A stretch of DNA of 64,000 nucleotides, taken from positions 26,052-90,051 of the IMG/VR virus record IMGVR_UViG_3300028920_000055; one strand, given 5' to 3'. The position numbers were made by a program, and so were the translations under genes. The notes under the pieces are model-generated. The model saw only the letters and a program-made list of their open reading frames with translations, was not told the DNA's origin and did no database searches. The DNA comes from a virus. Of this stretch, positions 479 through 31,611 are shown one piece after another (position 1 is the first letter of the stretch; every line of letters starts with the position of its first letter).

Positions 479-488
479 GAGGTGAGAA

Positions 489-3557: not shown

Positions 3558-3651
3558 CTATGGATAATAAAACATTGAATGATTTCGAAAGATCCAAGAT
3601 ACCAATATGTTTGTAAAATAAATTTTCACACTTTAACAGGAGGAAAGGAAA

Positions 3652-4050: not shown

Positions 4051-4076
4051 AATCCCTGCGCTGCTGCGCGCCCTCA

Positions 4077-4121
4077 GAGAGGCGGTAATGTTGCCGGTCA
4101 TTGCCGTCTCTCACTTTTTTT
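4077..4121 (+). terminator. Intrinsic terminator
   Basis: 14-bp stem GAGAGGCGGTAATG/CATTGCCGTCTCTC (2 G-U pairs), 8-nt loop, then T7. Confidence 0.8.
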
Positions 4122-4152
4122 GTGTTAATTAACTGTTTGTTGGAGGTGTAAA

Positions 4153-14611: not shown

Positions 14612-16309
14612 ATGCCTTACAGTTATCCCAACAATATACCATCTTGGGCTAAGAATCTGCCAACAGGTGCTCAGAAAAAGGCAATTTCTGCTTTTAATTC
14701 TGTTTTAAGGGACAATGGAACAGAAGAAGAAGCAAGAATAGCCGCTTGGGCAAATGTTAGGCGCGATTATAAAAAGTCTGGTGGTAAATGGGTGAAGAAA
14801 ACTTTTTCAATCCAGATTGATGACATCGTCACCTTGGACGAGTTGACAGATGACATCTTGGAGTTACCTGGTAAGTTACCCGTTGTCTGGATGAAATTGT
14901 TTAATGGCCTGGTTGAGAAACAAGTAAGTGTCCCCCTTGCGAGACAGAAGGTATGGGAAAGCATTAAAAAGTATGTGTATCAAACAAGGGATGGCAGTTG
15001 GAAATTCAAAAAACTGTTACCCGCCGAACGAATACTTTTTAATGACACGAACAAAGAGAGGGTTCCAAAGATGCTGATCTTTAAACAGTCAAATTCCAAA
15101 GATGGCCTCTTCAAAATGTTCATTCCTTTCCAAAAGGGTGTACAAACTGACCCCACTGGGAAAAAATTCTTGAAGGGCATCGCTTCTGGTAATTGGGTTG
15201 ATCGAGAATCCGATCAGATCATGCCCACTTTTATCAAGAAAATGCACAGTGTGGCTATTGGAAAGCCTGTCTTTGTAGATCACAAAAGAGATCAGGATCA
15301 CTTAATCGGAAGTGTTGTAAAGTCAGATGGTGATGATGACAAGTTCATTCCCACCACTGAACTTGAAGATGCTTTCGATAAGGAAAACCAAGAGGGCAAC
15401 ATACAAGTATCCACTCTCTTGAAAAGAATGGATAGGGGAATTAAATTTGCCTATTCCATTGGCGGTAGAATAACCAAAGCCGCAAAAGTTTGGCGCGAAG
15501 ATTTGAAAAAATTTGTGCGTCAAATTTACGATGGAGAGTTGTACGAAGTAAGTGTTGTTCCTGTTGGCGCCCTTCCTGGTTCCGATGTAGTCATGTTTTC
15601 CAAAAATCTCACTGACGAAATGTTCGAAAAAGATGAGTTGGACGAGGAATTCGAACAACTTATGAAGAGTGCTGGTGTGGACATCTCTAAGATCGAAGGA
15701 GATGTGGAGGTTCCTGTCATTGGGAGAATGGAAGAAGATGATTACTTTTGGCTTGATTTTGATAAGGCTGTTGACGCTTTTTCCGATCTAAGTATGGATC
15801 AACCCAAAGTCGAGGATGTTGATGTAGATTCCTTGTCAAAAGAGTGTTTCATACTACAGAAGAGCAAAAGATTCCCTTACAAATTTAATGACAATGAAAG
15901 TGGGGAGAATCTGTTACATCTTGGATTGCTTGACAAGTCTTTCCAAGAAGCTCACGATCAAGCCAAACATGATTCAGAAGCCAAGCTGGCTTATGAGTTA
16001 ATAAATGGTATCCGCAAGACTCTCGGCATCAAGGACAAATATTACAATTTCATCGATTTTCGGAAACTGTTGGTTGGCACAATCGGAGAAGCCATTGAGG
16101 CTCGTCAAGCAAGACAGAGGCTTTACGATGTGTTTGACGAATTCAACAGTTCTGTTTATCAAGTCATTTGGTCGGATGCATCTGTAGCCGAAAAGAAATC
16201 GGATATTGATGGATTGGCGGATCAATTGAAGAATGAGATTGATGAATTGTCGGTCGCTATGTCGCAAGAGGTTGTGGTTGCCATGAAATCGCTATCTGTT
16301 AAGGAGTAA
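14612..16309 (+). CDS. Prohead protease with N-terminal ChaB-like domains
   Basis: LP.GAQ...AFN....AAWANVRRDYKK.GGKW (ChaB-like); GIAS..VDRESD, DH, YSIGG, LYEVSVV (HK97-type protease). Confidence 0.85.
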   Translation: MPYSYPNNIPSWAKNLPTGAQKKAISAFNSVLRDNGTEEEARIAAWANVRRDYKKSGGKWVKKTFSIQIDDIVTLDELTDDILELPGKLPVVWMKLFNGLVEKQVSVPLARQKVWESIKKYVYQTRDGSWKFKKLLPAERILFNDTNKERVPKMLIFKQSNSKDGLFKMFIPFQKGVQTDPTGKKFLKGIASGNWVDRESDQIMPTFIKKMHSVAIGKPVFVDHKRDQDHLIGSVVKSDGDDDKFIPTTELEDAFDKENQEGNIQVSTLLKRMDRGIKFAYSIGGRITKAAKVWREDLKKFVRQIYDGELYEVSVVPVGALPGSDVVMFSKNLTDEMFEKDELDEEFEQLMKSAGVDISKIEGDVEVPVIGRMEEDDYFWLDFDKAVDAFSDLSMDQPKVEDVDVDSLSKECFILQKSKRFPYKFNDNESGENLLHLGLLDKSFQEAHDQAKHDSEAKLAYELINGIRKTLGIKDKYYNFIDFRKLLVGTIGEAIEARQARQRLYDVFDEFNSSVYQVIWSDASVAEKKSDIDGLADQLKNEIDELSVAMSQEVVVAMKSLSVKE

Positions 16310-16314
16310 TTACA

Positions 16315-17046
16315 ATGCCGAAGCAAAAGATTGCCGGTAAGAAGATCACCAAAACAGCAGACGAAGCCATCAACAAGATGCTGGAAAGTATCGCTGATGA
16401 GGCTTTGGGAAAGAGTGCCGATGATGGTGACGATGAGGAATATGTCACCATGGATCAGTTGGAAGAGTTCGGCAAGGGTCTGCTGAAACAGGTGCTTGAT
16501 GGAACAAAAGAGAAATTCGATGGTATCGAAAAGACTCTGAAAGCCATCAAGGACAGCGTGACCGATCAAACCGATGGTGATGAAGAGGATGATGAAGAGG
16601 ATGAGAAGATCAACAAGAAAGCCAAGAAGTCCAAGTCCAAGGACAAGAAGGAGCTGAACAAGTCCAAGGATGAAGACGATGAAGATGAGGATGAAGACGA
16701 GGATGATGAGGATTGGGATGAAAAGGACAAGTCCTCCAAGAAGATCAAGAAGTCCAAGGACAAGAACAAGTCCAAGGATGAGGATGATGAGGATGAAGAC
16801 ACAGCTATCGAAAAGGCTGTGGAGAAAGTTCTTACCAAGGCACTTGGAAAAGGCGTTTCCGGTCGCAAGAGCCATGTCGTTGTCGATGGAAAGTTGGTGA
16901 AGTCTGTTGACGGCGAAGTGCCTGAAAATGCTGTAACAATCGATGTTGATAACATCGATATGGAAGATTGGAACGCTCTGCCTGAAGAGACGAGGAACAA
17001 GATCGTTGCTCGTGAATTCAAAGAGCGAATGTTTGGTTCCAAATAA
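16315..17046 (+). CDS. Capsid scaffolding protein with alternating acidic and basic tracts
   Basis: Between protease and MCP; AAGGAG RBS; KSKD repeats and D/E runs. Confidence 0.7.
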   Translation: MPKQKIAGKKITKTADEAINKMLESIADEALGKSADDGDDEEYVTMDQLEEFGKGLLKQVLDGTKEKFDGIEKTLKAIKDSVTDQTDGDEEDDEEDEKINKKAKKSKSKDKKELNKSKDEDDEDEDEDEDDEDWDEKDKSSKKIKKSKDKNKSKDEDDEDEDTAIEKAVEKVLTKALGKGVSGRKSHVVVDGKLVKSVDGEVPENAVTIDVDNIDMEDWNALPEETRNKIVAREFKERMFGSK

Positions 17047-17097
17047 TCTGGCTGCGGCCAGCACGGATATACTCGAACTGTGATGGAGGATGTAGTC

Positions 17098-18102
17098 ATG
17101 CCGAAACTCGGAACTCTGACAGATGCTATTCAGAAGGCATTGACCACAACCGCTGGTAGTGGTGGTGACTTTCTGCCAACACCACTCGCGGCCACCTACA
17201 TCGATCTTGTTCGGGATTTGACGGTTTTCCGTCAAGTGTTTCGTGTGATACCGATGCCCGGAAAGACTTTTGACTTTCCGAAAATTTTGAGTGGGCCGTC
17301 TGTGTATTACGAAAGCACAGAGCTTACTCAAGAGGCAATCGAAACCACAATGACCACAGGTACAGTCAGGCTAACGGCTCGTAAGTTCATGGCCCAATTG
17401 AAAGCGTCTGAGGAAATCTTTGAAGATTCCTCGCAAAACATGGACGCTATCATTCGGGAGCATTTTGCCCGCGCCATGGCCGAAGCTGAAGAGGAAACCT
17501 GCCTTGTTGGTGACAGAAGCCACACTGCGGCTTCTGGAACCGAAGCCGCAGCCACTGAAGCCAATTGGTACACTAAAGACCATAGGCTCGCGTGGAATGG
17601 AATCCTCACCCTCGCTGGGGACATTGTCGGAACACTTTCTGCCGGAAACCGCGCCGCCAATCGTGTTGATTCGTCTGGTGCTGGAATGTCCACTGCCCTC
17701 ATTCGTCAGCTTCTGTACAATCTCGGAAAGTATGGTCGCCGGATGAGCGATATAGTGGTCTTTTGCAACCCCTGGTCGGTTAACCAGCTGTTGGACGATT
17801 CGAAACTGGTGACTCTTGACAAGTATGGCCCGAAAGCCACCATTTTCACCGGTGAGTTTGGGAAGCTGTACGGAAAGATCACGATGATCAACAGCGATTG
17901 GTGTACTGACGGCTATGCCGTTGGTACGCACAAATCTAATGTGGTTCTTGGTGATCGCCGGAAGATCAAGCTCAAGAGCGAGGAAATGATTGAATACGAT
18001 GCAAGACGTTTCGTCATTTCCCAGCGTGCCGATATGGCATGTGAACACCAAGACGCATTGTGCCAAATCCACGACCTGGATCAGCCGAGCACATGGAGTT
18101 AA
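17098..18102 (+). CDS. Major capsid protein (HK97 fold)
   Basis: ALTT.AGSGG.FLP, SEEIFEDS, LYG motifs; GGAGG at 17085-17089 supports ATG 17098; strong codon bias. Confidence 0.93.
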   Translation: MPKLGTLTDAIQKALTTTAGSGGDFLPTPLAATYIDLVRDLTVFRQVFRVIPMPGKTFDFPKILSGPSVYYESTELTQEAIETTMTTGTVRLTARKFMAQLKASEEIFEDSSQNMDAIIREHFARAMAEAEEETCLVGDRSHTAASGTEAAATEANWYTKDHRLAWNGILTLAGDIVGTLSAGNRAANRVDSSGAGMSTALIRQLLYNLGKYGRRMSDIVVFCNPWSVNQLLDDSKLVTLDKYGPKATIFTGEFGKLYGKITMINSDWCTDGYAVGTHKSNVVLGDRRKIKLKSEEMIEYDARRFVISQRADMACEHQDALCQIHDLDQPSTWS

Positions 18103-18128: not shown

Positions 18129-18162
18129 GATGGGCCTCTGTAAAGGGGCCCATCTTTCTTTT
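18129..18162 (+). terminator. Intrinsic terminator after the MCP gene
   Basis: GATGGGCCTCT-GTAA-AGGGGCCCATC 11-bp stem, GNRA loop, then TTTCTTTT. Confidence 0.85.
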
Positions 18163-18179: not shown

Positions 18180-20420
18180 ATGAACAGACCAGAAGAAGGT
18201 GGTTTTATTTCGGGCAGTAAAAACATTATCAATGTAGGCCCGGAAGGAAAGAAAAAGGCGTATCCATCAGGAATCATTGATACAAAATCATTGGTGGTTC
18301 CGAACGAATCTGCTATTGATGGATCTAATATTTCTATTGGACAAGATGACACTCATTTTATGATTAAATTGTCCAAAGATTTTCTTGTGTCAGCCAGCAG
18401 AGAAGATGTTTTAAATTTAGTAAAAATGGCCTTATCCCCTATGTTTCTCTCCTTACCAAAAGATGATGCTATTCAAAAAGATATTGATGAAGAAAAGAAA
18501 AAACCAATTTCCGGCAAAGGAATTGCTATTTTTATGGACATGTTGTCACATTATACTGGCGGAAGATATAGTGTGGTACATCAAGGGGTGCTGCTCGCAG
18601 AAAATTTTGAAGTAACAATCGTAGCCAATCGAGAAATCCCATTTTTAAAAGATTTTAGGAACTATCCCGGCTATAACAATTTAAAAGTCGTAGTGGATTC
18701 TCAGTGGAGAATGAATGAACCTGAAAATCCTTATTTTCTTGTAATTGGATTGCCCGTAGACGCTGCCCAATATGCTTATGTTTATTGTCAAAAATGGAAA
18801 ATTCCTTTTTTCTGCTATATGTTTGAAAGTCCCAATTATGTATCTGAATATCGATCTGGCCCTGATTCTACAGAGGATTTTTGGGCTAATTTTAAAAAAG
18901 TGATAGAGAAAGCAGATGTTCGTCTTTCTCCCAGTGAAATAAGCAGTAAATATTTACAAGATTGGATCAAATTGTATGATAATAGCTTTCATGTCGTATA
19001 TCCTTGTATGAATACTCTCGTGGCAGATAAAGCCGCCGAAAGACCAATCAAAGAATACGATAAAGACCTTGTGTATGTTTCTCGAATGACTTCTTTTAAA
19101 AATCCATTGACTATCATTAAAGAGTTAGATCGAAGAAATTACAGCGGAACTTTACATATCATTGGAAAGATTTGGCAAGATAATGCTATTCCAGTCGATG
19201 CTTTCAAGAATGTTAAGATAAAAATACATGGTCAATTGGATGATTATGAAAAGTTTCGCATTATTGCTTCTTGCAAAGCATTGATTTTCCCAAGCAAATT
19301 CGAAGGTTTTGGTATGCCACCAATGGAGGCACTGTATTTTAATAAACCTGTAATTTGTTATCGATTGCCTGTATTGGAAGAGGTGTACGGAGACCACCTT
19401 GTTTATGTGGACGGAAATTATCGAACTTTTGTATCAAGAGTGTTCGAAGTATTAAAGAATTATCAATTATACATTCCAAATTGGAAGCCTCCATTTTCTT
19501 CTCCGGATGCTTGTAAGAGAAAATTGCTTAATATAATCCCCAAGCGAAAAATGCAAAAAGTATCTGTAGGAATTTTGGCTTTTAATTGTAATGATTATTT
19601 GCCATACGTTATAAAATCTTGTTATGACGAAGTGGATGAAATAGTCATTTGTGAAGGGCCAGTAAAAGGATTCGAATATGGTGCTACAGAAGAATATCAC
19701 AGCTCCGATGGTACTTGGGAGTGGCTCACGGATGATACTGGTCTCGGAATTGAAGATCCAAAGAATAAAGTTAGAATTATAGCAAGAAATGATAAAAGAG
19801 CTTGGTATGATAAAATAGAAATGCAGAACGCTATTGCGGAACGAGTAACAGGAGATATTTATATCAAGATGGATTCCGATGAAGTTTGGGATCCAAGAAC
19901 AATAAGGTCTGTTGTAGAATATATGATTATGAATAAAAATGTAGATATTATTCGAATGCCTTTTCTACATTTTTGGACATCTTTTGATAAAGTCGCTGTG
20001 GATGCTGGTGGTAAATGGGGAACTTGTCACCCACGAATATGGAGATGGCGCAGAAGTTTCCGACATCGTAAAACATTTAATGCTTTTCAAGATACTGCTC
20101 ACGATAATAGAATGGTAGCAGAACCATTCTTTGTTGAGCATACTTGGGAGGCTGAAGAGGGTGTAATATTTCATTTTGGTTATGCGAGAAAATTATACTA
20201 TGTGAATCAAAAATTGAGATATTATGCCGGAAGGCAAATAGAAAAAGTTGTAAAAACTGGTACATACGAGAATTGGAGAACACTTAAAGATTCTACCCAA
20301 CCTACACAAAATGTTAGAAGTTGGGCTGTCAAATTTAATAAGGAATTGTTGCCTCCAATAATGAAGGAGCATCCTTATTACGAGATAGACGACATAAGGA
20401 AACTGGAAGATGAAGGATAA
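18180..20420 (+). CDS. Two-domain glycosyltransferase: GT4 (GT-B) fused to GT2 (GT-A)
   Basis: FPSKFEGFGMPPMEA (GT4 E-x7-E); SSDGT and MDSDE (GT2); GAGG RBS before ATG 18180. Confidence 0.9.
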   Translation: MNRPEEGGFISGSKNIINVGPEGKKKAYPSGIIDTKSLVVPNESAIDGSNISIGQDDTHFMIKLSKDFLVSASREDVLNLVKMALSPMFLSLPKDDAIQKDIDEEKKKPISGKGIAIFMDMLSHYTGGRYSVVHQGVLLAENFEVTIVANREIPFLKDFRNYPGYNNLKVVVDSQWRMNEPENPYFLVIGLPVDAAQYAYVYCQKWKIPFFCYMFESPNYVSEYRSGPDSTEDFWANFKKVIEKADVRLSPSEISSKYLQDWIKLYDNSFHVVYPCMNTLVADKAAERPIKEYDKDLVYVSRMTSFKNPLTIIKELDRRNYSGTLHIIGKIWQDNAIPVDAFKNVKIKIHGQLDDYEKFRIIASCKALIFPSKFEGFGMPPMEALYFNKPVICYRLPVLEEVYGDHLVYVDGNYRTFVSRVFEVLKNYQLYIPNWKPPFSSPDACKRKLLNIIPKRKMQKVSVGILAFNCNDYLPYVIKSCYDEVDEIVICEGPVKGFEYGATEEYHSSDGTWEWLTDDTGLGIEDPKNKVRIIARNDKRAWYDKIEMQNAIAERVTGDIYIKMDSDEVWDPRTIRSVVEYMIMNKNVDIIRMPFLHFWTSFDKVAVDAGGKWGTCHPRIWRWRRSFRHRKTFNAFQDTAHDNRMVAEPFFVEHTWEAEEGVIFHFGYARKLYYVNQKLRYYAGRQIEKVVKTGTYENWRTLKDSTQPTQNVRSWAVKFNKELLPPIMKEHPYYEIDDIRKLEDEG

Positions 20421-21675
20421 GATATATTACAACGAAATGAAACCGGATGGCGACAAAAATTTTGTGGATAAAAATGCCGAACCAGTTAAAAGCAAAATTT
20501 TTGTTCAAAACGAATGGGTTGTTTCTCCATCTTCTACAAGGGATGTAATTGAAAAATTTCAATCTGTTATGATAGGAACAAAAGTAAAAAGTTTGAGACA
20601 AGTAATGGAAGAAAATGATAATCCCGATATGCCCTTTCAGGGATGGAGAGTAAATGTGGTGACTTGGGCGGATGTCGATAGCCGCACATATATGTGTTGG
20701 GGAGATTATTGGGTAAAGAAACAAATGGAAAATCATTTAAAGAAAATGGGATGTGTACTTAATGTTGGTCTTGAAGAAGCTGATGTATCGATATACCTTT
20801 TTGGATCCCCTTTTAATTACCGACCTGTTAGACCCTATCAATACAATCCTCTTTCCTACAATGTAGTTTGGTTTTATAGCCATCCTGACAAGATGAATGT
20901 CACAGAATCTGCTAAATACGATTATTTGTTTTGTCTTTCGGAGCCTTATATCGAAAAAATAAAAAAACAACACTTTAATGTACACCCTGAACCACTGCTT
21001 TCTTGTACGGATTTTAAACAGCCAGATGTAATTAAATATGGTGAACATCGAGATATTGTTATGGTCGCTAATGCTCGTGGAGCCGGTGCTCCTTATGGGC
21101 GTCAAATTGTAAAATTGTTAACTAACATTAATTTAAAAGGATTGAAAGTAAGTGTTTGGGGGCATAAATGGAATGATAGTAAGAAATATCATAAATTTCC
21201 ATCTAAATGGTATAAAGGTCAATATTGGGACTATAATCAGTTGCCGGAGCTTTATAGAGGGGCCAAAGCTGTTCTTATAGACGGTCACACTGACATGGAA
21301 CGTGAAGGCTTTGTTCCTATGAAATTGTTTGATATATTCGCTTCTGGTGGATTACCTATCATACATAAAAATCCCGGTATAAAAAAGATATTTGGTGATT
21401 ATGTTCTTCAATATCGTGACGAGGAATCTTTACATCAATGCATTACAATTCTTTCCAATAAAGAGAAGTGTTTAAGAATCATTAAAAGGGGGCAAAAGAT
21501 TGCTTTGCAACATACATTTAAAGATCGAGTAAATACTATTATGAATACAATACGAGATAATGTAGTAAAATCTGATGCTCTAAGAGGGGATTCGAGAGCA
21601 ATGATATTTAGAAGTTCGAAGACAAGTACTGTTAAAAGAACAGGCAAAATAGAATGGGTAGGAAATGTCGATTAA
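20410..21675 (+). CDS. GT-B glycosyltransferase (CgeB/Glyco_trans_1_2-like)
   Basis: WGHKW, LPELYRGAK, MKLFDIFASG, HTFKDRV. Confidence 0.85.
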   Translation: MKDKIYYNEMKPDGDKNFVDKNAEPVKSKIFVQNEWVVSPSSTRDVIEKFQSVMIGTKVKSLRQVMEENDNPDMPFQGWRVNVVTWADVDSRTYMCWGDYWVKKQMENHLKKMGCVLNVGLEEADVSIYLFGSPFNYRPVRPYQYNPLSYNVVWFYSHPDKMNVTESAKYDYLFCLSEPYIEKIKKQHFNVHPEPLLSCTDFKQPDVIKYGEHRDIVMVANARGAGAPYGRQIVKLLTNINLKGLKVSVWGHKWNDSKKYHKFPSKWYKGQYWDYNQLPELYRGAKAVLIDGHTDMEREGFVPMKLFDIFASGGLPIIHKNPGIKKIFGDYVLQYRDEESLHQCITILSNKEKCLRIIKRGQKIALQHTFKDRVNTIMNTIRDNVVKSDALRGDSRAMIFRSSKTSTVKRTGKIEWVGNVD

Positions 21676-22414
21676 GCACGTAAAATATGAAGCCTTGATA
21701 ATCACTTATAACAGATTGAAATATCTAACACAATGTATCGAATCTCTTAATAAACAATCTGTTAGAGTGATGATAAATGTGTGGGATAACGGTTCCGCTG
21801 ATGGAACGAAAAAGTGGATTAAACAAAATATATCCAAATTGAATGGCGGAGATTTTTTTGATAATGGGAGAAATGTTGGAACAGCAGACGCGAGAAATAT
21901 TGGTCTTTCGAGACTTCAATCAGATATTGTATTATTAACAGACGATGATATGTGGTATCCAAGAGATTTTATGGAAGCCGCTTATGGAGTGTTCGAAGTA
22001 AAAGACGATGCAGGTGTAGTTACCGCCTACAATCCTCATACAGAGGCTCGATATAAGAAAAAATTTCTTAAAATGAGAACACACGAAGCTGATATATATA
22101 TGATTGATTTGATACAATCTTGTCCACCTGGATGTTGGGTTTGTGACAGAGAATTAATATTAAGTTGTGGAGGATTCTTTTTACCCAAAGGAAAGTTAAT
22201 GGGTTATTCTTCAAGATTTTTGGTAAGAAGCATATATGGCGAGGGAAAGAAATTTTATGGTATTTATAAATACAAAGGAAAGCCGATGAAAGTGGAGCAT
22301 ATGGATACTCTTAGCAATAAAAGATCACATTTGTTATATTATAAGGATATAGGATATGTAGATTTTAGATTGAGACAGAAGTATGGAAGTAAATACAAAA
22401 GTAGAAAGAAATGA
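21665..22414 (+). CDS. Glycosyltransferase family 2
   Basis: TYNR, DNGSADGT, NVG.ADARN.GL, DDD. Confidence 0.9.
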   Translation: MSIKHVKYEALIITYNRLKYLTQCIESLNKQSVRVMINVWDNGSADGTKKWIKQNISKLNGGDFFDNGRNVGTADARNIGLSRLQSDIVLLTDDDMWYPRDFMEAAYGVFEVKDDAGVVTAYNPHTEARYKKKFLKMRTHEADIYMIDLIQSCPPGCWVCDRELILSCGGFFLPKGKLMGYSSRFLVRSIYGEGKKFYGIYKYKGKPMKVEHMDTLSNKRSHLLYYKDIGYVDFRLRQKYGSKYKSRKK

Positions 22415-22415
22415 T

Positions 22416-23387
22416 ATGAGAATTTTATACGCAGGTACATTTACTGGTTTTTGGGTTTCAGATCACCATAGAGCAAATTCTTTCAAGAAGTATTTTGATA
22501 GAGTTGTTCAATTCGATTATCGCACTGTCGGCAAAGGTGATAATCTAAAGATGTGTTCTATTTTACACCAATCTATAGGAAGCCTTAATCCTCATGTTTT
22601 ATTTGTAAACAAAGGTGAACAAATTATACCGAATACTTTACATAGAATTAAATTGAATTTTCCCAATACCTTTATTGTAGCCTTTAACGGTGATCAAAGG
22701 GGAAAGGCTTCAAATATGACCGCAGCATTGGGAAGGGTTGCAGATGGTATTCTTATAAACAACCAACACGAGCCTCAATGGAAAGAATATAAAGATATGG
22801 GGGTTAGAGCGATATATGAATATCATACAGCTTCTGATCCCTCTGTGTTTAAACCAATAAGAGGAATCGATAAAAAATTCGATATAGTTTTTGTCGGTGG
22901 AAATTATGGAGATAAGTTTCCGCTAAGTAAATTTAGATTAAATTGTATAAGAGAGTTGGCTAAGGATTTTAAAGTTGCTATTTCCGGCACAACTAATTGG
23001 AGAAATGTACCTGGTATTCATTTTCTTGGCCGCAATTATGATGTAAAATTTTCAGAAATTGCTGCACAAGCTCGATGTATACTTGGAGTAAATGCTTTCG
23101 ATAATGTAAATCATTATACAAGCAATCGAACTTGGAATAGTATGGCTTGTGGAAGGCCATATGTTTGTCATTATTATCAAGGGGCTGAACATTTTTTTGA
23201 TGATAAGAAAAACATATTGTTTTTTAGGAATATAGATGATTTAAAGCAAATTGTAAGTTGGATAAAAGCGAATGAGAAGCAAGCTGACCAGATTGGAGCG
23301 GCTGGAAGAAAATTGATTCAAACCCAACATACTTACGATCATAGAACTGAACAATTATTAAGGATATATGAACAATGGAAAAAATGA
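22416..23387 (+). CDS. GT-B glycosyltransferase (CgeB-like)
   Basis: FDIVFVG, SNRTWNSMACG, HTYDHR. Confidence 0.85.
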   Translation: MRILYAGTFTGFWVSDHHRANSFKKYFDRVVQFDYRTVGKGDNLKMCSILHQSIGSLNPHVLFVNKGEQIIPNTLHRIKLNFPNTFIVAFNGDQRGKASNMTAALGRVADGILINNQHEPQWKEYKDMGVRAIYEYHTASDPSVFKPIRGIDKKFDIVFVGGNYGDKFPLSKFRLNCIRELAKDFKVAISGTTNWRNVPGIHFLGRNYDVKFSEIAAQARCILGVNAFDNVNHYTSNRTWNSMACGRPYVCHYYQGAEHFFDDKKNILFFRNIDDLKQIVSWIKANEKQADQIGAAGRKLIQTQHTYDHRTEQLLRIYEQWKK

Positions 23388-24112
23388 TTGACTTTTTTGT
23401 ACTTACTTATAATCGATTAAAATATCTTAACCAGTGTGTTCGATCTGTAGTAGATCAAACAGTTGATATTAGGATTAATGTGTGGAATAATGGGTCTACA
23501 GATGAAACTACCGAATGGTTAATTAACCATTCGGAATTGCTAAATAGGGGACTACTTTTCAACAGTCCCGTTAATTTGGGAGTTGCAGATGCTCGTAATG
23601 TCATGATCGATTTAATAGATGCTAATTGGATATTTATTAGTGATGATGATATGTGGTATGATACTAATTGTATGAAGTATAATTGGGAAATGTTACAAGC
23701 CTATGAAAATAAGTTTGGAAAATCTAAAATTGGTTTTGTTGGCTTGAACATGCCTTGGAGAAGAAGTAAATATGATGATGAAATATTTATTAAAAAAGTA
23801 AATGTTGATAAATTCGAAATACACGAAGTTAGAACAACTCCACCCAATGCTTGGCTTATTAATAAAAAGGCTCTTTTTAAAATGGGCGGGTTTAAATTGC
23901 CGCCAAATCGATTGATGGGATATACAGCTTTTCATTTGCCAAATCAGTTAAGACAAAATGGTTACAAGGTGATTAGACTCGATAAAGTGAATGGAAAATT
24001 ATACAACGGTTGCGAACATACTGATAATATAGGTCACGAAAAAGGATTTAGAGATCATTACGAGGAATACAATGAGTGGAGATCCAAAGAAAAAAGATTG
24101 CCCACTGCCTGA
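23375..24112 (+). CDS. Glycosyltransferase family 2
   Basis: TYNR, NNGSTDET, NLGVADARN, DDD. Confidence 0.9.
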   Translation: MEKMIDFFVLTYNRLKYLNQCVRSVVDQTVDIRINVWNNGSTDETTEWLINHSELLNRGLLFNSPVNLGVADARNVMIDLIDANWIFISDDDMWYDTNCMKYNWEMLQAYENKFGKSKIGFVGLNMPWRRSKYDDEIFIKKVNVDKFEIHEVRTTPPNAWLINKKALFKMGGFKLPPNRLMGYTAFHLPNQLRQNGYKVIRLDKVNGKLYNGCEHTDNIGHEKGFRDHYEEYNEWRSKEKRLPTA

Positions 24113-24791
24113 TGCTGTAGAGTTAAAAAATCTTGCAAAAAGGTATAAAACAGATAAAGTCAGGCATGGATTTATACCAATTTATTCCAGTTATTTAAAG
24201 TCATTCCGTCAAAAGGCTAAATTTGTAATTGAAATTGGAATAAAATATGGTGCCTCTTTAAAGATGTGGCACGATTATTTCCCTAAAGCCACTATCGTAG
24301 GCATTGATAATATGGTAAAACACGATCCATCTATTTGGGCTAAATCAGAATTTGAATCAAGAGTGATTGTTTGGAAAGCAGATCAATCAAATCCAAAAGA
24401 CTTGAGCCGGTTTATTTATCAATCTCAAGGGATGATGGGAAAGGTTGATCTGATTGTTGATGATGGTAGCCACAAGATGTACGATCAACAGCTAACGCTG
24501 GCTAAATTGTTTGTAATGCTAAGGCCAGGCGGAATATATGTAATAGAGGATTTGGATACATCTTTGGCAGGTGGTCCAAAAAATAAATTTGGGATAATAA
24601 AAGATGACCAAGATACCACATTACGTGTACTTGAAAGGGCCAGAATTAAAAAGAAGATACAAGTTACATCTCGTCACTTGGCTAATTTGGAAGTTAATAG
24701 GATTTATCTTTGTAAGCATATTGCTGGTATTGACATTTATCGCTTACATGATTGCAGGAATATTATTGCTTTTATTAGGAAAATCAAATGA
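24072..24791 (+). CDS. Class I SAM-dependent sugar O-methyltransferase (MycE/TylE-like)
   Basis: TDK..HG, IEIG..YGASLKMW.DYFP.A.IVGID, IVDDGSH, GGIYVIED. Confidence 0.85.
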   Translation: MSGDPKKKDCPLPDAVELKNLAKRYKTDKVRHGFIPIYSSYLKSFRQKAKFVIEIGIKYGASLKMWHDYFPKATIVGIDNMVKHDPSIWAKSEFESRVIVWKADQSNPKDLSRFIYQSQGMMGKVDLIVDDGSHKMYDQQLTLAKLFVMLRPGGIYVIEDLDTSLAGGPKNKFGIIKDDQDTTLRVLERARIKKKIQVTSRHLANLEVNRIYLCKHIAGIDIYRLHDCRNIIAFIRKIK

Positions 24792-25513
24792 ATCTTGAAG
24801 AAATTACAACAGCCGTTATTACCTATAACAGACCACTTTGTGTAGGCAATTTTTTAAAATCCGCTCGCAAGCATCTTGACGATATGCCAGTGTTGGTAAT
24901 AGATGGTTCGAGCGAGATAGGTGATGGATGTATTACTTTCGATTCCGCAATATTTACACATAATAGACCATTATCAATCAATCTCAATAACGCTATCTTG
25001 TTCTCTCGAACAAGATATGTAATGATTTGCAATGACGATATTTATTTCAAAGATGGAATCATGCCTTTTTTGTTTAAGTTAAACGGGGCAGGATTGCATA
25101 TCTTGAGCAATTGGAGCTGTTTTGTAATAGATAAAGCAATTATTCCTACAGTTGGTTGGTTTGATCCAAGATTAGAGTCAGCAGGATACGATGGGAAAGA
25201 TTACGGTTCCAGAATGAAAATCTGTGGAATCGAAATGAAAAGGTATGATTGTAGAGAGTTTATACATCACGATCAGTATACAAGAAGGAAACATTATAAA
25301 TCAGTAAGATGGAATTATCGTCAATCTTTTGATTTTTTTAGAAAAAAGTGGGATGTAGTAAATAGTAAAACTACTGTGAATAGTAAAACTACTGTGAATT
25401 TAAAAAAGTTAAGTGGTGCTAAGTTGAAGCAGATGAAGAAAATGGATGATCCTGATTGGTATCCTTATTATACAGAATTATACAGGAAAGGTATCTGGTC
25501 AGATGAAATCTAA
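24788..25513 (+). CDS. Glycosyltransferase family 2
   Basis: ITYNRP, IDGS, CNDD, VGWFD.R. Confidence 0.8.
   Translation: MNLEEITTAVITYNRPLCVGNFLKSARKHLDDMPVLVIDGSSEIGDGCITFDSAIFTHNRPLSINLNNAILFSRTRYVMICNDDIYFKDGIMPFLFKLNGAGLHILSNWSCFVIDKAIIPTVGWFDPRLESAGYDGKDYGSRMKICGIEMKRYDCREFIHHDQYTRRKHYKSVRWNYRQSFDFFRKKWDVVNSKTTVNSKTTVNLKKLSGAKLKQMKKMDDPDWYPYYTELYRKGIWSDEI
25361..25399 (+). repeat. Perfect in-frame 18-bp tandem duplication (NSKTTV x2)
   Basis: AATAGTAAAACTACTGTG at 25361-25378 and 25379-25396. Confidence 0.95.
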
Positions 25514-26306
25514 TGCAGAACTTACAGTTGCACTGGCCTTGTTCAAGGGAAAAGAGATTTCCTGGCTTGGTATGGAATCTTTATGTAATCAAGTTACAAT
25601 TCCTGCTTCTTGGGAATTGCTGATAGCAGAAGAACAGTGCTCTGGAAGAACAGGAGCTGATGAAATCTTAAAATATCACAAGCGATTAAGGGAAATTGGT
25701 TGTGAAAGAATTGAATATTATCCCCTTACGAAAACTATGGGATTGGTAAATAAGTTTGTATTTTTAGCCAGTAACGCTGCAGAGACTTCAAAAATGTTTT
25801 TACTTTGGGCACAGGATGATTATTATGTGTCTACAAGGATAAGAGAAACTTATGATGCTATGATGTCTTATCCTTATCATATGTATACAAGAGATAACAA
25901 TTTCGATTATAGTTTTGCAACAGGAAATTTAACTTACAGACATTATAACAATAGGATTTTCAGACCTTACATTGAATTGGCTTATCGTCCACACGCTTTA
26001 AAAAGAATTATTTTAACAGGCGATGCAAGGCGGAGAAGTCATTCAGATATGACTCTGTTTAAATTGTATCAAGAAGTCGTCAAGAAGAAAAAGATTACAA
26101 GATTTATAAACACATTGCCCAATAATTCTGTTTATACTACAGGATTTAATTATTATAACAAGCCAAGAATTAAAAAATTGAAGCCAAGTAAAATGTTTCA
26201 ATATACAGAAGCTATATTGGAAGATGTTGTACCTGTAGATATAGCTATGAGACTTAGAGAATTAAAAAAGGTGTATGATGAAAGAACGCAAAAATATCAA
26301 CACTGA
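25503..26306 (+). CDS. Divergent GT-A glycosyltransferase
   Basis: LTVAL..F, MESLCNQ...WELLIAE, AQDD.Y...RI. Confidence 0.7.
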   Translation: MKSNAELTVALALFKGKEISWLGMESLCNQVTIPASWELLIAEEQCSGRTGADEILKYHKRLREIGCERIEYYPLTKTMGLVNKFVFLASNAAETSKMFLLWAQDDYYVSTRIRETYDAMMSYPYHMYTRDNNFDYSFATGNLTYRHYNNRIFRPYIELAYRPHALKRIILTGDARRRSHSDMTLFKLYQEVVKKKKITRFINTLPNNSVYTTGFNYYNKPRIKKLKPSKMFQYTEAILEDVVPVDIAMRLRELKKVYDERTQKYQH

Positions 26307-26943
26307 AACTTATTGGGACGGAAAGTATTCCAGAAATTATTGGAGTAATCCCAATAATTTGGTAAAAGGTGCACACAAGCCTCTTTATGAAAAAGTTGTA
26401 GACATAATATTCGAGGTGCGTCATGATTATATTGTGGACTTGGGGGCCGGAATTGGTCCAGTCCCATTTTTACTATCAAAACGGGGTTTTGATTTTAATA
26501 AAAGAATATACATATGCGTGGATCAGTCAACCGTTGGACTTGATAGGGCTAAAAAATTCAGTCCCTCAGTGAAAGTATTGCCCGCCAAAGTTGATGAGCC
26601 TATTACTCAGCTTGAGAAAAGCAAAGCTGATCTTGTAATATGTTGCGAAGTGCTTGAACATTTAACCAATCCAATAAATGCTTTAAAAAATGCTTATGAA
26701 CTTGTGAGCGATACAGGATTGGTTGTAGTTTCTGTTCCTCACGGAATAAGCAAGCATCAAGAACACGTACACTGGAGCATAAGGCAGGATTTGTTGGAGC
26801 GTTTTCATGAAGCGGTTGGGCTCAATGTTTATGGGGTTACAATCGCAGATCGCTGGCGAGTTGTAAAAAGCAGAAGAATGTGGAGGAAGAAAAATGTCGA
26901 GCATCCAACAGTTCAGAAAGCCGATCTTTGTATTTCAGACTAA
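26275..26943 (+). CDS. Class I SAM-dependent methyltransferase
   Basis: VDLGAGIG, VDQS, DLVICCEVLEHL, VSVP. Confidence 0.9.
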   Translation: MMKERKNINTETYWDGKYSRNYWSNPNNLVKGAHKPLYEKVVDIIFEVRHDYIVDLGAGIGPVPFLLSKRGFDFNKRIYICVDQSTVGLDRAKKFSPSVKVLPAKVDEPITQLEKSKADLVICCEVLEHLTNPINALKNAYELVSDTGLVVVSVPHGISKHQEHVHWSIRQDLLERFHEAVGLNVYGVTIADRWRVVKSRRMWRKKNVEHPTVQKADLCISD

Positions 26944-28084
26944 GATCGAAAAAGATAAAGTATTGGCTACAATATCTGATTCAATTGATAAAGGTTGGAT
27001 TGGACTCGGTAAGGTAACTGAAGCGTTCGAGCGAGAATTTGCTGAATATGTTGGAGCAAAGTATGCGGTTGGTTTGAATAGTGCCACAGCTGGACTCCAT
27101 CTTGCTCTTATTTTAGCCGGAGTAAAAAAACACCAGCAGGTTATAACTACACCAATGACTTTTGTTTCAACCAATGCTGCTATTCTTTATGTAGACGCGA
27201 ATCCCTTTTTTGTAGATGTTGGTGAATATTTACATATAAAAATCGATGATATACTTAATCCCGAAATAAGTCCAAACAGTGCTAAAGCTATAATGTTAGT
27301 ACATTTCGGCGGGATTCCTATTGAAAAGAAAAAAATTATACAGCTTCAGAATAATTGTCCCCATACAGCTATTATACAAGATTGCGCTCATGCTACAGGG
27401 GCGAAATTTGAAGATGGATCGATGGTAGGAAGTTTTGGAGATTATAACATCTTTTCGTTCCATGCTGTAAAAAATTTACCATCACCTGATGGCGGAATGT
27501 TGGTAACTAACGATGCATCTATTGCCGCAGAAGCAAAAAAGTTGAGGTGGATGGGTATCGATAAAGATACGGCTTCAAGAACGCACCATCTACACAACGT
27601 TGGATATAGCTGGTATTATAATGTTGGGAAGCTCGGATATAAATATCACATGAACGATATAACTGCTGCATTTGGATTAGCTGGACTCGATACAATCAAT
27701 AGAGATAATGACCGGCGCGGAGAAATTCGACAGGCTTATTATGACAAAATAGACAAAAATTATGCCAAGTTGGTAATGGCAGATACTAATGTAAAGTCTG
27801 CTAATCATATGGCTACATTAATACTAAGACAAGGTATTGATCGAAATACTCTTATCCAACGATTGAAAGATAATTGGAATATTCATCCTGGAGTACATTA
27901 TACTCCAAATAATTATTTTGAGCCGTTTTCTAATTATCCAGGCGGAACTATAATGGCTTGGAACGTATATAAACAGATTGTGACTTTGCCTTGTCATCTC
28001 GAAATGACCGATGAAGATGTGGCAAGAGTTATAACGGCGGTAAACTCTGAGATAGATAGAATATTAGAAAAATCACTACAATGA
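26894..28084 (+). CDS. DegT/DnrJ/EryC1/StrS NDP-sugar aminotransferase
   Basis: NSATAGLHLAL, TFVST, QDCAHA, FSFHAVKNL (PLP Lys), GYKYHM. Confidence 0.95.
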   Translation: MSSIQQFRKPIFVFQTKIEKDKVLATISDSIDKGWIGLGKVTEAFEREFAEYVGAKYAVGLNSATAGLHLALILAGVKKHQQVITTPMTFVSTNAAILYVDANPFFVDVGEYLHIKIDDILNPEISPNSAKAIMLVHFGGIPIEKKKIIQLQNNCPHTAIIQDCAHATGAKFEDGSMVGSFGDYNIFSFHAVKNLPSPDGGMLVTNDASIAAEAKKLRWMGIDKDTASRTHHLHNVGYSWYYNVGKLGYKYHMNDITAAFGLAGLDTINRDNDRRGEIRQAYYDKIDKNYAKLVMADTNVKSANHMATLILRQGIDRNTLIQRLKDNWNIHPGVHYTPNNYFEPFSNYPGGTIMAWNVYKQIVTLPCHLEMTDEDVARVITAVNSEIDRILEKSLQ

Positions 28085-28150
28085 AACCAATCATATTTGC
28101 TCTCTAAGAGCAAATTACCTTAAATTCATAGTAGGATACAGGAGGAAAAT

Positions 28151-28438
28151 ATGTCTACAATAAGAGGATTTTCGTTGGTGGAGCCGCCGAAGGCGGAGAG
28201 CTTCATAAAATATGTACACCACGGCATTAATATGTGGGTACGTAATGCCTTGAAAGGAAAGCATCGGTTGGTGTGTTGTTGCTATCATTGTGATAAATTT
28301 CATCCAGGCAAGGAGAACAATTGTCCAATAGCTCAAGCTCTTTATGAGTTTGATGTGGATAATAGTGTAACAACTCCTGTTTGGGAGTGCGAAGGTTTCG
28401 AATTTACCGATACGCCTGATGTGGAGGAAACAAAATGA
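28151..28438 (+). CDS. Small Cys-rich hypothetical protein
   Basis: AGGAGG RBS; CCCYHC...NCPIA...VWEC. Confidence 0.7.
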   Translation: MSTIRGFSLVEPPKAESFIKYVHHGINMWVRNALKGKHRLVCCCYHCDKFHPGKENNCPIAQALYEFDVDNSVTTPVWECEGFEFTDTPDVEETK

Positions 28439-28962
28439 GTAATTGTAAATACGACATCGTTCTGGTTCCTGTAAACAAAGATGTAGCTGGAGATTCTCAG
28501 TTTATTTACAACGTCAGGAACCATCCGGCCATCCGGAAAAATCTCATCAACGAAAGTGAAATTCCAATCTCGAAACACAATCAGTATTGGAGTAAACTCA
28601 TTCTCTCCAATGACGTTGTGCTCTATAAAATCGAAATGATGGATCCGATTACTCATCAATTCATCTCGGTTGGATATTGTGATACTAAAGTAATCGGTGA
28701 TGAGATGGAATTCGGTTGGAAGATTTTACCGGATTATCAAGGTCTTGGACTTGGCCGGAAAGCCGTTGAAGCTCTGCTCAACGCCAATGAAGGCTATATT
28801 CAGATCAAAGGCTTAACACCATCTTTGACAGTATTCGATGATAATTTTCCAGCCATTAAGTTATATCAATCTTTTGGTTTTGAAACAGTAGATCAAAAGA
28901 AATTGAAGAGACTTGATGGTACAATTCGTGTCCTTTTGAAGATGAAACTCACCTCTAATTAG
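28435..28962 (+). CDS. GNAT N-acetyltransferase (PseH-like)
   Basis: FIYNVRNHP.IR...I....H..YW; YQGLGLG acetyl-CoA loop; N.PAI.LYQSFGF. Confidence 0.85.
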   Translation: MSNCKYDIVLVPVNKDVAGDSQFIYNVRNHPAIRKNLINESEIPISKHNQYWSKLILSNDVVLYKIEMMDPITHQFISVGYCDTKVIGDEMEFGWKILPDYQGLGLGRKAVEALLNANEGYIQIKGLTPSLTVFDDNFPAIKLYQSFGFETVDQKKLKRLDGTIRVLLKMKLTSN

Positions 28963-29040: not shown

Positions 29041-29733
29041 ATGGCAACTGGAGAATTAACAGCTTCTTATATCGATTGGGAAGATGCTTGTTATATGGTC
29101 GGGGCCGATCCTACGGCCATAGACAATATTAAGGATCCAATCATTCAATGGGTTGAAACGCTCGGTATTGAGTTGGAGCTTGGAAGAGACATCTCTACGG
29201 CATTTCAGGAAAATACTGTTAGCTCAAGTGATCCAGAGCTTCACAGTATTGAGCGCGATGATCAGGATACCCTTATAGCCAAGCATTTTCCTATCATAAG
29301 TGTAACTCGCCTGCGAGATAATATTCAAGCAAGCAATTCCAACAACATATTAACTCTAACGGAACATACTAATTTCGAGATCGAAAAAGAAACTGGACTC
29401 ATAAGGCTCACAGGCGAGTTACAAGACAGCAACCTGATGAAGAAAATCGAGTTCTTCACACAGGGTTATAATACAGTGGATCTGTGTTACGTGTGGGGAT
29501 TTACTTCAATTCCAAACGATGTAAAGGCTTTCGCTAATTTGATGGCTGCTGCTTTGTTGAGACAATACGATAAAATGGTAGCCAGTGGAGAATCTGCTGG
29601 ATTGAAGCGATTACAGATGGGCGATTATGAAGAAGAAGTGGGAGATATGTACAAGAACGCACAGAACGAGTTTATGGCATCTGTAAAGTTGTCTTCATAT
29701 CGGTTAAAGAGTAAATACGGAAATTATGTTTGA
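29041..29733 (+). CDS. Head-tail adaptor (SPP1 gp15-like)
   Basis: FP..SVT.L, GLIR, Y.WGF..IP.DVK.A, MGDY; first gene of the neck module. Confidence 0.75.
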   Translation: MATGELTASYIDWEDACYMVGADPTAIDNIKDPIIQWVETLGIELELGRDISTAFQENTVSSSDPELHSIERDDQDTLIAKHFPIISVTRLRDNIQASNSNNILTLTEHTNFEIEKETGLIRLTGELQDSNLMKKIEFFTQGYNTVDLCYVWGFTSIPNDVKAFANLMAAALLRQYDKMVASGESAGLKRLQMGDYEEEVGDMYKNAQNEFMASVKLSSYRLKSKYGNYV

Positions 29734-30092
29734 TGTCGATAGATGAATCAAAACTGCCTCAATCGGTGACTATATCTGAACCATCATCTTCACTCGATGC
29801 TTATGGTAATCCAGATGGAACGCTGGCTGTTATTAATTCGAGCGTTCCTTGTCGGATAACAAGAAATAAACATTACAATGCAGAAGCGGGAAGTGAAGCG
29901 GGATTTTTGAGTCGATCAACGCATTTGATTTTTATGAATCATACTTATAACAGCATTACTAATACTGTAAAGACTGGTTTTCAAATATCTACTGGATCTG
30001 ACATCTATATAGTTCAATTTGTAGACGATGCTCCCGGTGGAGTTGAAGATCATCATCAACAAATATATTGTACTAAGCAGGTAAAAGATTAA
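29730..30092 (+). CDS. Head closure/stopper protein
   Basis: D.YGNP, VPCRI, Y.V..V...HH.QI pattern; position. Confidence 0.7.
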   Translation: MMSIDESKLPQSVTISEPSSSLDAYGNPDGTLAVINSSVPCRITRNKHYNAEAGSEAGFLSRSTHLIFMNHTYNSITNTVKTGFQISTGSDIYIVQFVDDAPGGVEDHHQQIYCTKQVKD

Positions 30093-31155: not shown

Positions 31156-31611
31156 ATGTCAGTCCAATTCGGATTGGCCATCATGCGCTTGGATTCTGTG
31201 ACTCTGGGTTATATGCAGGGTGTGTCGCTCGATTTTAATTTCGAGCAAGCACTGTTGTATAGCGGGTCTCAGATTTTCCCTGTAGACGTTCGAGTTCACA
31301 CTGGAAGCATTGCTGGTAATGCTGAATTTGCGGATTTGAACGCCTTGGGAATTCACAAGCTAATTGGCGGCACAAGATCCAGCTATGGCGTTATCACTCT
31401 GACATCCACTTCATATCCCGGCACGTGGGAATGTTTGTTACACATGACCACGGATAACAAGACGTTCCGTATCGTGTTGGAGAAATGCAGGAGTACCAAG
31501 TTGAGTTTCGCTTGGGCAAGGGATGCTCACATTATTCCCAACTTCGATTTTCAAGCGTTCGATGATGGCTCCGGTAACATTGGAACCATCACGCTTGAGG
31601 ATGTTTCGTGA
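31156..31611 (+). CDS. Major tail tube protein
   Basis: AGGAG RBS; beta-rich; codon bias like the MCP; followed by a hairpin and the chaperone genes. Confidence 0.75.
   Translation: MSVQFGLAIMRLDSVTLGYMQGVSLDFNFEQALLYSGSQIFPVDVRVHTGSIAGNAEFADLNALGIHKLIGGTRSSYGVITLTSTSYPGTWECLLHMTTDNKTFRIVLEKCRSTKLSFAWARDAHIIPNFDFQAFDDGSGNIGTITLEDVS

Follow-up and report, generated by a model that had tools for sequence, protein, structure and literature searches.

A glycosyltransferase-rich island beside the capsid gene of a tailed phage from marine sediment: a probable case of virion glycosylation

Giant viruses decorate their virions without the secretory route of the host: the fibril of Mimivirus and the capsid of chloroviruses are modified by virus-encoded glycosyltransferases (GTs), together with an aminotransferase, an acetyltransferase and methyltransferases. 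As for tailed phages, the literature that we found documents virion glycosylation in no more than a few clusters of mycobacteriophages, which use three or four enzymes. Those phages (Che8, Corndog and cluster O/F phages) carry their glycans C-terminally on the subunits of the capsid and of the tail tube (Freeman 2023, cited in PMC12619734 and PMC11600133), and for mycobacteriophages a shielding from antibodies has been shown (PMC11600133). A further system is that of the spore crust: according to PMC13577073, CgeB, the namesake of the Pfam family PF13524, glycosylates the hexamer-forming crust protein CgeA at Thr112, a residue exposed on the outer face. Here we analyse a 64,000-nucleotide stretch of DNA from a tailed phage (hereafter the window; bases 26052-90051 of the 90,051-bp IMG/VR virus record IMGVR_UViG_3300028920_000055, with a completeness of 92% according to CheckV), which harbors an island of glycan-synthesis genes just past the gene of the major capsid protein. 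Mycobacteriophages have three tandem GTs and one methyltransferase, whereas this island contains 7 GT genes (8 GT domains), two methyltransferases, a DegT aminotransferase and a GNAT acetyltransferase, plus a Cys-rich open reading frame (ORF) of 95 amino acids (aa). The most likely reading, we suggest, is that the phage covers its own virions with a complex glycan (virion glycosylation); we would give it a probability of about 60%.

The island and the elements that flank it are listed below (positions in the window, whose long genes all lie on the plus strand).

17080-18102, plus strand: major capsid protein, HK97 fold (Pfam Phage_capsid 69.5 bits; phrog_10)
18129-18154, plus strand: terminator-like hairpin and T-run, 11-bp stem with 7 GC pairs
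18180-28962, plus strand: the island, 12 co-oriented and mostly overlapping genes
18180-20420, plus strand: ORF1, 746 aa, ATG at 18180 (Pfam Glycos_transf_1 53.7 bits and Glycos_transf_2 25.9 bits)
20410-21675, plus strand: ORF2, CgeB-family GT (PF13524, Glyco_trans_1_2, 59.5 bits), N-terminal extension with DKNFVD
21665-22414, plus strand: ORF3, GT2 (GT-A fold) with a DDD motif (Pfam 75.8 bits)
22383-23387, plus strand: ORF4, second CgeB-family GT (PF13524, 86.4 bits), homologs in most relatives
23375-24112, plus strand: ORF5, GT2 (Pfam 60.4 bits)
24072-24791, plus strand: ORF6, MycE/TylE-like sugar O-methyltransferase, catalytic domain only, 239 aa (Methyltransf_24; phrog_21658)
24788-25513, plus strand: ORF7, divergent GT2-like GT-A (Pfam GT2 22.7 bits, cut-off 23.3)
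25503-26306, plus strand: ORF8, divergent GT2-like GT-A, likely start at Met20 of the longest ORF (from 25446)
26275-26943, plus strand: ORF9, class I S-adenosylmethionine (SAM) methyltransferase (Methyltransf_23/11/12), homologs in the islands of relatives L008, L103 and L024
26894-28084, plus strand: ORF10, DegT-family pyridoxal phosphate-dependent sugar aminotransferase (Pfam 275 bits)
28151-28438, plus strand: ORF11, 95-aa Cys-rich protein (CCCYHC...C...C) between the DegT and GNAT genes
28435-28962, plus strand: ORF12, GNAT acetyltransferase (Acetyltransf_1, Acetyltransf_7)
29041-29733, plus strand: conserved connector-like protein, 230 aa, closing the island on the tail side and found at the same place in relatives
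29730-30092, plus strand: head-tail adaptor (phrog_793, E-value 5e-6)

An earlier note on this DNA, drawn up from its letters and reading frames, had counted the same GT genes and domains and divided them into GT4, GT2 and CgeB-like types; the count is borne out by Pfam and, as regards ORF7 and ORF8, by a protein atlas. Indeed, ORF2 and ORF4 pass the Pfam gathering threshold for PF13524 (25 bits). ORF7 falls among the viral GT2 clusters of the atlas (feature score 0.98, structural TM about 0.7), and so does ORF8 (feature score 0.98, TM 0.76-0.81; the atlas record begins at residue 20), for which no Pfam match was found; both carry a DD motif and owe their placement in GT2 to atlas features and structure only. 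The note was also right in reporting a second SAM methyltransferase and a DegT aminotransferase, and in stating that most of the genes overlap their neighbours, as 10 of the 11 gene junctions do. It had placed the island right after the capsid terminator and before the head-tail adaptor: the former holds, a strong hairpin lying 27 bases past the capsid stop codon, between the capsid gene and the island, while the gene of the connector-like protein separates the island from the adaptor.

As far as the tailoring enzymes are concerned, the MycE-like methyltransferase of the earlier note is correct for the catalytic domain: the best solved matches of ORF6 are TylE (8ia9, E-value 1e-18) and MycE (3ssm, E-value 1.2e-16), residues 17-168 aligning to residues 158-307 of 8ia9. 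The solved enzymes also have an N-terminal auxiliary domain, and their first ~150 residues are missing from ORF6. ORF10 has PseC and ArnB as its nearest models, both below the NCBIfam equivalog cut-offs (265.7 bits against the PseC model TIGR03588, under the cut-off of 423.5), and ArnB as its best solved relative (E-value 7e-47). ORF12 is presumed to be the N-acetylase of the amino sugar, and its gene follows the DegT gene also in L008, L013 and L103; that it is a GNAT was confirmed, while the PseH likeness claimed for it is weakly supported, since its best solved match is the generic GNAT PA1377 (E-value 4e-6) and PseH (4xpk) matches over nearly the full length with an E-value of 0.027. Such scores for PseC and PseH are too low to fix the sugar, the place of its amino group or a PseH assignment. 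Lastly, ORF11 has no family match, and tblastn found no match to it in any relative, including the otherwise similar islands of L008 and L103.

The first gene of the island deserves particular attention. ORF1 consists of an N-terminal disordered peptide with the sequence GSKNIIN, a small alpha/beta domain, a retaining GT4 domain (GT-B fold) and a GT2 domain (GT-A fold). In the AlphaFold2 (AF2) model (pLDDT 84.6), residues 1-47 are disordered and are followed by a two-strand, two-helix domain and then by both GT domains. Across 23 ORF1 homologs, the EX7E motif of the GT4 domain (E375, E383) and the DxDE motif of the GT-A domain (D565, D567, E568) are invariant. The motif G-x-K-N-[IF]-[ILV]-[ND] of the disordered N-terminus is kept in most homologs (18180-18320; columns 1-60 of alignment A1), and a similar one, DKNFVD, opens ORF2 and its homologs (20410-20500). 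As a genome-wide signal, KN[IF][IV][ND] gave 4 matches versus about 1.4 expected, and we kept it merely as a feature of the ORF1 and ORF2 N-termini, where the peptide may serve for docking or targeting, an idea rather than a result. The GNAT ORF12 holds RKNLIN at residue 35.

The full-length ORF1 family is rare and confined to phages, with about 43 members among 5.8 billion proteins, all of them metagenomic and none named beyond "glycosyltransferase". Among 185,579 prokaryote species (one genome each), ORF1 had two matches, both on phage-like contigs binned into metagenome-assembled genomes (MAGs) and both with a capsid gene directly upstream; a tblastn search of 50,697 phage records yielded nothing from a mycobacteriophage and two matches, weak and partial, to contigs of gut phages. 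Homologs of ORF1 were binned into a Hodarchaeales MAG (P0012) and into a Chloroherpeton thalassium MAG (L103); the binning of L103, at least, is probably wrong, given that it is a phage-type contig of 33% GC with a whole head-tail module. An archaeal (Asgard) host, considered on account of the Hodarchaeales-binned homolog, was dropped because the replication genes are of the bacterial type (DnaB, DnaG-type primase, 5'-3' exonuclease, Rho_N domain). More distant ORF1-like proteins occur on jumbo-phage contigs (L026, L027, L028 and L030), such as a GT4+GT2 protein of 634 aa with 24% identity on a 147-kb contig (L027, 9977-11881). In L049 (7043-8455) the gene past the capsid gene matches the GT4 half of ORF1 only and a separate GT2-like piece comes next; the same 111-kb contig also encodes a second GT4 paralog, immediately upstream of its terminase gene (L029, 10001-10957).

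IMG/VR was searched for relatives of the phage with the capsid and ORF1 proteins and with a profile of each, which gave about 100 loci, and the proteins of the window were mapped onto these by tblastn. An ORF1 homolog (27-48% identity) was found 0.1-4 kb past the capsid stop codon in 29 of the 29 distinct IMG/VR contigs with enough downstream sequence, whose capsid proteins are 41-78% identical to that of the window; when the two MAG-binned phage contigs are added, ORF1 follows the capsid gene in 31 of 31, over a capsid identity of 41-80%. The seven contigs without an ORF1 match all end less than 1 kb past the capsid gene. No homolog of ORF1 or of any other island gene was detected in about 22 outgroup contigs (capsid identity at most 38.6%, at least 3 kb downstream). 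The linkage to structural genes in relatives, which the earlier note had named beforehand as a test of its interpretation, is thus observed wherever there is enough sequence. Furthermore, the pairwise distances of the capsid proteins and of ORF1 are strongly correlated (Mantel r 0.88, p 1e-4, n = 16 genomes), a correlation indicating that ORF1 is, as judged from the sequences, a vertically inherited part of the head module and not a recent moron. Four relatives are represented by complete genomes (88-93 kb), and terminal repeats are present in three of these. The two MAG-binned contigs have a GC content of 33% and 63%, respectively, which implies that the lineage infects very different hosts.

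The genes downstream of ORF1 are much more heterogeneous. The relatives L008 and L103 (capsid identity 78-80%) harbor, in the same order, ORF1, ORF2, one GT2, ORF4, an ORF9-type methyltransferase, DegT and GNAT; they lack ORF6, ORF7, ORF8 and ORF11, and have a single GT2 where the window has ORF3 and ORF5. ORF2 homologs occupy the same position in L002, L008, L103, L011, L013 and L024; ORF1, ORF2, ORF4, DegT and GNAT are retained in L013-L015; two ORF2-like and two GT2 genes are present in L011; and L006 embeds ORF1, a CgeB-type GT and a polysaccharide pyruvyl transferase. The further island ORFs of the relatives that we tallied code only for glycan tailoring (pyruvyl transferases, methyltransferases, GNATs), with no dehydratase among them. 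In the most distant branch (L016, L019, L025 and others), ORF1 lies between the capsid gene and a series of small ORFs plus a very long one, which resemble neck and tail genes and were not scanned against families; ORF1 appears to be the sole sugar gene of the module there, which fits a priming role. The island of the window is the largest among all those found. Taken together, these comparisons suggest a fixed ORF1 followed by genes that vary as those of an O-antigen locus do. One more GT gene lies outside the island:

489-1241, plus strand: extra GT2, 250 aa, ninth GT domain (Pfam 67.8 bits), in a region of small genes without annotation 17 kb upstream

Its closest homologs are the in-island GT2s of L103 and L024 (35-37% identity), so that it looks like a displaced member of the island, at least from its sequence. 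Neither the genes around it (59-4871) nor a 4-helix membrane protein encoded just upstream of the window gave family matches, and no second sugar cluster or GtrA-like partner was found there.

If virion proteins are glycosylated, which of them might be the acceptor? The capsid protein of the window ends with ...LDQPSTWS, and the capsid proteins of all ORF1-bearing relatives possess a C-terminal [PAG]-S/T-x(x)-S tail whose last Ser is invariant (PSTWS, PSTAS, ASTES, PSSTS, PGSGS, PSAS and PPSAS are examples), with the ten residues before it varying between branches. A similar feature is shown by the putative major tail protein:

31156-31611, plus strand: putative major tail (tube) protein, 151 aa, between the neck genes and the chaperone pair and tape measure genes, ending with ...LEDVS

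Ten aligned homologs of this protein have a D-x-S end, with S151 invariant and D149 nearly so. Its identification is based on gene position, size and a weak profile match to the 158-aa tail tube protein 9fkb (E-value 0.05), a single-sequence search against solved structures having given nothing significant. No conserved C-termini were found in the connector-like protein, the adaptor and the scaffold. The capsid Ser tail can therefore be regarded, on the basis of conservation, as a candidate glycan acceptor, and the terminal Ser of the tail tube as a second candidate. The parallel with the C-terminal sites of mycobacteriophages is suggestive, as an analogy drawn from a single clade with a tube assigned by position, size and a weak match.

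The acceptor and its site, the order of the steps, the identity of the sugars and the benefit to the phage (shielding or surface properties) are what we infer from these data, and the scheme might be the following. The island would be a late-expressed, wholly cytoplasmic glycosylation machine decorating the phage's own particle. A fraction of the transcripts would read through the capsid hairpin, leading to the expression of 12 translationally coupled genes below the capsid level; promoter-like sites in the island (58 versus 52.6 +/- 8.7 in shuffled sequence) are not in excess, a count that is uninformative on internal promoters. ORF1 would dock by its disordered N-terminal peptide and add the first sugars directly onto a virion protein, the likeliest site being the Ser tail of the capsid and a possible second one the terminal Ser of the tail tube. 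Both CgeB-type GTs, together with the four small GT-A enzymes, might then lengthen and branch the chain, DegT and GNAT might turn a host-made nucleoside diphosphate (NDP)-4-keto-sugar into the donor of an N-acetylated amino sugar, and the MycE-like enzyme and the second methyltransferase might cap hydroxyl groups. With a protein shell that is assembled in the cytoplasm as the substrate, the system would need neither a lipid carrier nor a flippase or polymerase. The variable downstream cassette would give different coats to related phages. As for the benefit, in the sediment the glycan could equally protect the particle from proteases, change its adhesion or hide it from defences that bind carbohydrates.

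The earlier note had proposed that the phage makes a 4-amino-deoxysugar of its own, N-acetylated and O-methylated. Its genes do cover the final tailoring; the synthesis of the keto-sugar is not encoded, since neither SDR-type 4,6-dehydratases/epimerases (SDR, short-chain dehydrogenase/reductase; PF01370, PF16363) nor the nucleotidyltransferase family PF00483 had a match in the 90-kb record. In the absence of a dehydratase and of a nucleotidyltransferase, the NDP-4-keto-sugar for DegT must come from the host. The proposal of a phage-made amino sugar is thus partly supported, the phage encoding only the steps that finish this sugar, and the same can be said of the earlier interpretation as a whole.

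Several observations weigh against virion glycosylation. Co-divergence with the capsid protein is what one would expect of any vertically inherited gene, and the co-occurrence of the Ser tail and ORF1 represents one phylogenetic event; moreover, although the capsid C-termini of the outgroup differ, about 7 out of 30 also end with Ser. The AF2 model of the capsid protein, which matches the capsids of T5, DT57C and HK97, is of medium confidence (pLDDT 67), has the last nine residues as coil and does not show on which face the tail lies. The Foldseek typing proposed in the earlier note, run on the ORF1 model, recovered the GT4 fold through generic retaining enzymes (MshA, PglA, WsaF, PimA, WaaG), which do not indicate a protein as the acceptor. 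The phage is uncultured: a search with its capsid protein found no relative among 50,697 phage records, cultured ones included, and the island had no megablast match among cultured phages. Finally, the slot after the capsid gene is a hot spot for insertions, which makes position alone weaker evidence: unrelated ORFs of 150-230 aa with C-terminal or multiple membrane helices sit in the relatives between the capsid gene and ORF1, as follows.

L006, 2876-3487: inserted ORF
L009, 9186-9869: inserted ORF
L012, 9359-9895: inserted ORF
L013, 9197-9787: inserted ORF
L022, 6114-6662: inserted ORF

These small ORFs had been considered as decoration-protein acceptors, and were dropped because they are mutually unrelated and mostly possess membrane helices.

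Among the other explanations, the one that survives best, which we nevertheless deem unlikely, is that the enzymes remodel a glycan of the host envelope (O-antigen, capsule, teichoic acid or S-layer glycan) on lipid-linked intermediates of the host; the receptor would be masked in this way, and progeny would not be trapped on debris or rival phages would be excluded. Most cellular relatives of these GTs do use lipid-linked or polymer acceptors (weak NCBIfam matches to PglJ, EpsD and TuaG; folds of PglA, WaaG and WsaF), soluble GTs could chemically act on the lipid carriers of the host, PHROGs classes such GTs as morons or host takeover genes, and a depolymerase-type tailspike and a carbohydrate-binding module make host glycans a likely receptor. 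Against this reading stands the gene content of the record. The earlier statement that no flippase, Wzy polymerase or Gtr system is present was confirmed and can be extended: the island enzymes are soluble, with no membrane helix in any island protein (hydrophobic stretch, usual 19-residue threshold), no protein of the record has at least 5 predicted membrane helices, so that there is no candidate for a flippase or a polymerase, and the priming enzyme family Bac_transf has no match in the 90-kb record, PF00953 (WecA type) not having been searched. In the control for the Bac_transf, SDR and nucleotidyltransferase searches, 10 to 14 of 14 control genomes were matched. Lacking candidates for priming, flipping and polymerization, these enzymes cannot alone start and export a lipid-linked polymer; indeed, none of the features that define seroconversion systems (Wzx/Wzy, GtrABC; priming enzyme, flippase, polymerase) was found in the record, and no GtrA/B-like membrane protein either. 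Classical lysogenic seroconversion is also unlikely in that no integrase or lysogeny module appeared among the genes scanned, although no systematic search was made. Moreover, the position in a late operon leaves little time for the export of a new surface polymer, and the co-inheritance of ORF1 and the capsid gene in hosts of 33 to 63% GC would be left unexplained.

Less probable still, in our opinion, is that the island glycosylates the DNA of the phage, i.e. that a hydroxymethyl or amine-bearing pyrimidine from a ThyX module receives an oligosaccharide and that this hypermodification blocks host nucleases. Two findings in its favour count at the same time against virion glycosylation. The window carries, at 57-62 kb near the polymerase gene, a module of ThyX, an NT5C-like nucleotidase and a class III aminotransferase, which may hypermodify DNA:

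59734-60270 (85785-86321 of the record, G000): ThyX

In addition, the distant ORF1-like GT of L027 lies amid the genes of thymidylate synthase, ribonucleotide reductase, UvsX and PhoH, 2.5 kb from the first of these on a jumbo phage contig and away from structural genes. To our knowledge, on the other hand, 8 GT domains with amino-sugar tailoring exceed any known DNA glycan. Phages are known to use enzymes of both folds, GT-A and GT-B, for the hypermodification of DNA; intact pathways usually cluster with the base-modifying enzyme (bioRxiv 10.1101/2023.12.21.572611), whereas the island lies about 31 kb from ThyX, inside the head-tail operon. Furthermore, a complete relative (G003, locus L011) harbors an 11-kb island but no ThyX, ORF1 stays beside the capsid gene throughout the range of 41-80% capsid identity, and the island proteins gave no match to T4-type DNA GT families in Pfam or PHROGs.

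The least probable explanation, an acceptor of another kind (tail fibres, portal, scaffold, a host protein to inactivate, or a soluble glycoside) with adjacency to the capsid gene as a historical accident, can appeal to the fact that the sequences themselves do not identify the acceptor, to the unrelated insertions in the post-capsid slot and to the extra island-type GT2 located 17 kb away beside unrelated genes, but it leaves unaccounted for both the conserved terminal Ser of the two most abundant virion subunits and the lineage-wide retention of ORF1 in the head module.

Virion glycosylation remains our preferred reading, and the structure of the surrounding region can be summarized as follows. 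Upstream of the capsid gene lie:

12928-14508, plus strand: portal
14612-16309, plus strand: ChaB-prohead protease fusion, ChaB domain N-terminal (49.7 bits), weak Peptidase_S78 match at residues 271-330
16315-17046, plus strand: highly charged scaffold-like protein, 243 aa, with long D/E and K/S runs

The ChaB-protease fusion is kept in relatives with 42-45% identity. GC content peaks in the scaffold region (0.476, the highest in the window), where a 369-aa ORF on the opposite strand (minus, 16222-17331) is probably spurious; the GC of the island (0.33-0.37) is similar to that of the genome overall, only the scaffold and capsid stretch being richer. On the other side of the island, the connector-like protein has no family match and nothing significant among solved structures in a sequence search; the adaptor is followed by Neck1, two small proteins, the 151-aa putative tail tube, a chaperone-like pair and a tape measure protein of 1377 aa. 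A 1010-aa protein with a phage depolymerase C-terminal domain is encoded upstream of the terminase gene (4868-7900), and a 323-aa protein with a CBM_4_9 carbohydrate-binding domain in the tail-fibre region (41574-42545); judging from these two genes, the phage probably recognises and cuts a glycan of its host. No tRNA was found in the window. The stretch occurs only in sequencing runs of marine-sediment metagenomes (DNA), with no RNA-type run on record among those listed.

If virion glycosylation were true, self-glycosylation would be a conserved core trait of an environmental phage lineage whose hosts range from 33 to 63% GC. Its enzymes would by far surpass in complexity those of the cases known so far and reach the level of giant viruses, and its genes would consist of a priming gene that stays fixed and a cassette that varies. 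Moreover, a single GT and a short C-terminal peptide would make up a testable, carrier-free system of protein O-glycosylation; capsids or virus-like particles coated with glycans might be produced in this way, and the ORF1 family would serve as a marker gene for glycosylated phages in metagenomes. Going one step further, we can tentatively speculate about a lineage of ~90-kb uncultured siphoviruses with carrier-free virion O-glycosylation, in which ORF1, docked by its disordered N-terminal peptide, primes the C-terminal Ser of capsid and tube. The downstream cassette (CgeB-type GTs, GT2s and enzymes for amino-sugar, methyl, pyruvyl and acetyl tailoring) would be swappable and would specify a glycan "serotype" for every phage, so that the lineage would possess a viral equivalent of the O-antigen locus of bacteria.

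How would such a system compare with those already described? With the DNA-hypermodification clusters (bioRxiv 10.1101/2023.12.21.572611) it shares the presence in the genome of phage GT-A/GT-B enzymes and of a thymidylate-synthase-type enzyme; the GTs of those clusters, however, adjoin C5-MT, 5mYOX or ThyS, whereas here they belong to the head-tail operon, far from ThyX. The likeness to giant viruses is at the level of shared superfamilies: the virus is here a tailed phage with an HK97-fold capsid, and without a 4,6-dehydratase or a nucleotidyltransferase the pathway is incomplete. The analogy with Mimivirus drawn in the earlier note is thus functional at best, and does not extend to a match of pathways.

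The nearest working analogue that we found is the spore crust of Bacillus. The B. subtilis CgeB is soluble and reportedly glycosylates an assembled hexameric shell protein in the cytoplasm of the mother cell without lipid carrier or flippase (PMC13577073), which is the logic proposed here; ORF2 and ORF4 share the Pfam family of CgeB, with a similarity at the family level only, and the shell is a spore crust in one case and a virus capsid in the other.

As in mycobacteriophages, the phage has its own GTs and a sugar O-methyltransferase in one gene block. Mycobacteriophages build their glycans in the cytoplasm, on structural proteins that they themselves encode, and the same logic is proposed here from the gene content; the known sites of those glycans are the C-termini of capsid and tail tube, the two proteins that end here with a conserved Ser. 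At the same time, no relative of ORF1 (the sole GT compared) was detected among mycobacteriophages or other phages in culture and, unlike in mycobacteriophages, the first GT is a core gene fixed beside the capsid gene throughout the lineage, the hosts being bacteria of marine sediment. Overall, the island would work like the virion glycosylation of mycobacteriophages and, in its logic, like the glycosylation of the spore crust and of giant viruses; what would be new is a much larger set of enzymes, arranged as a core gene with a variable cassette and forming a core trait of an uncultured lineage.

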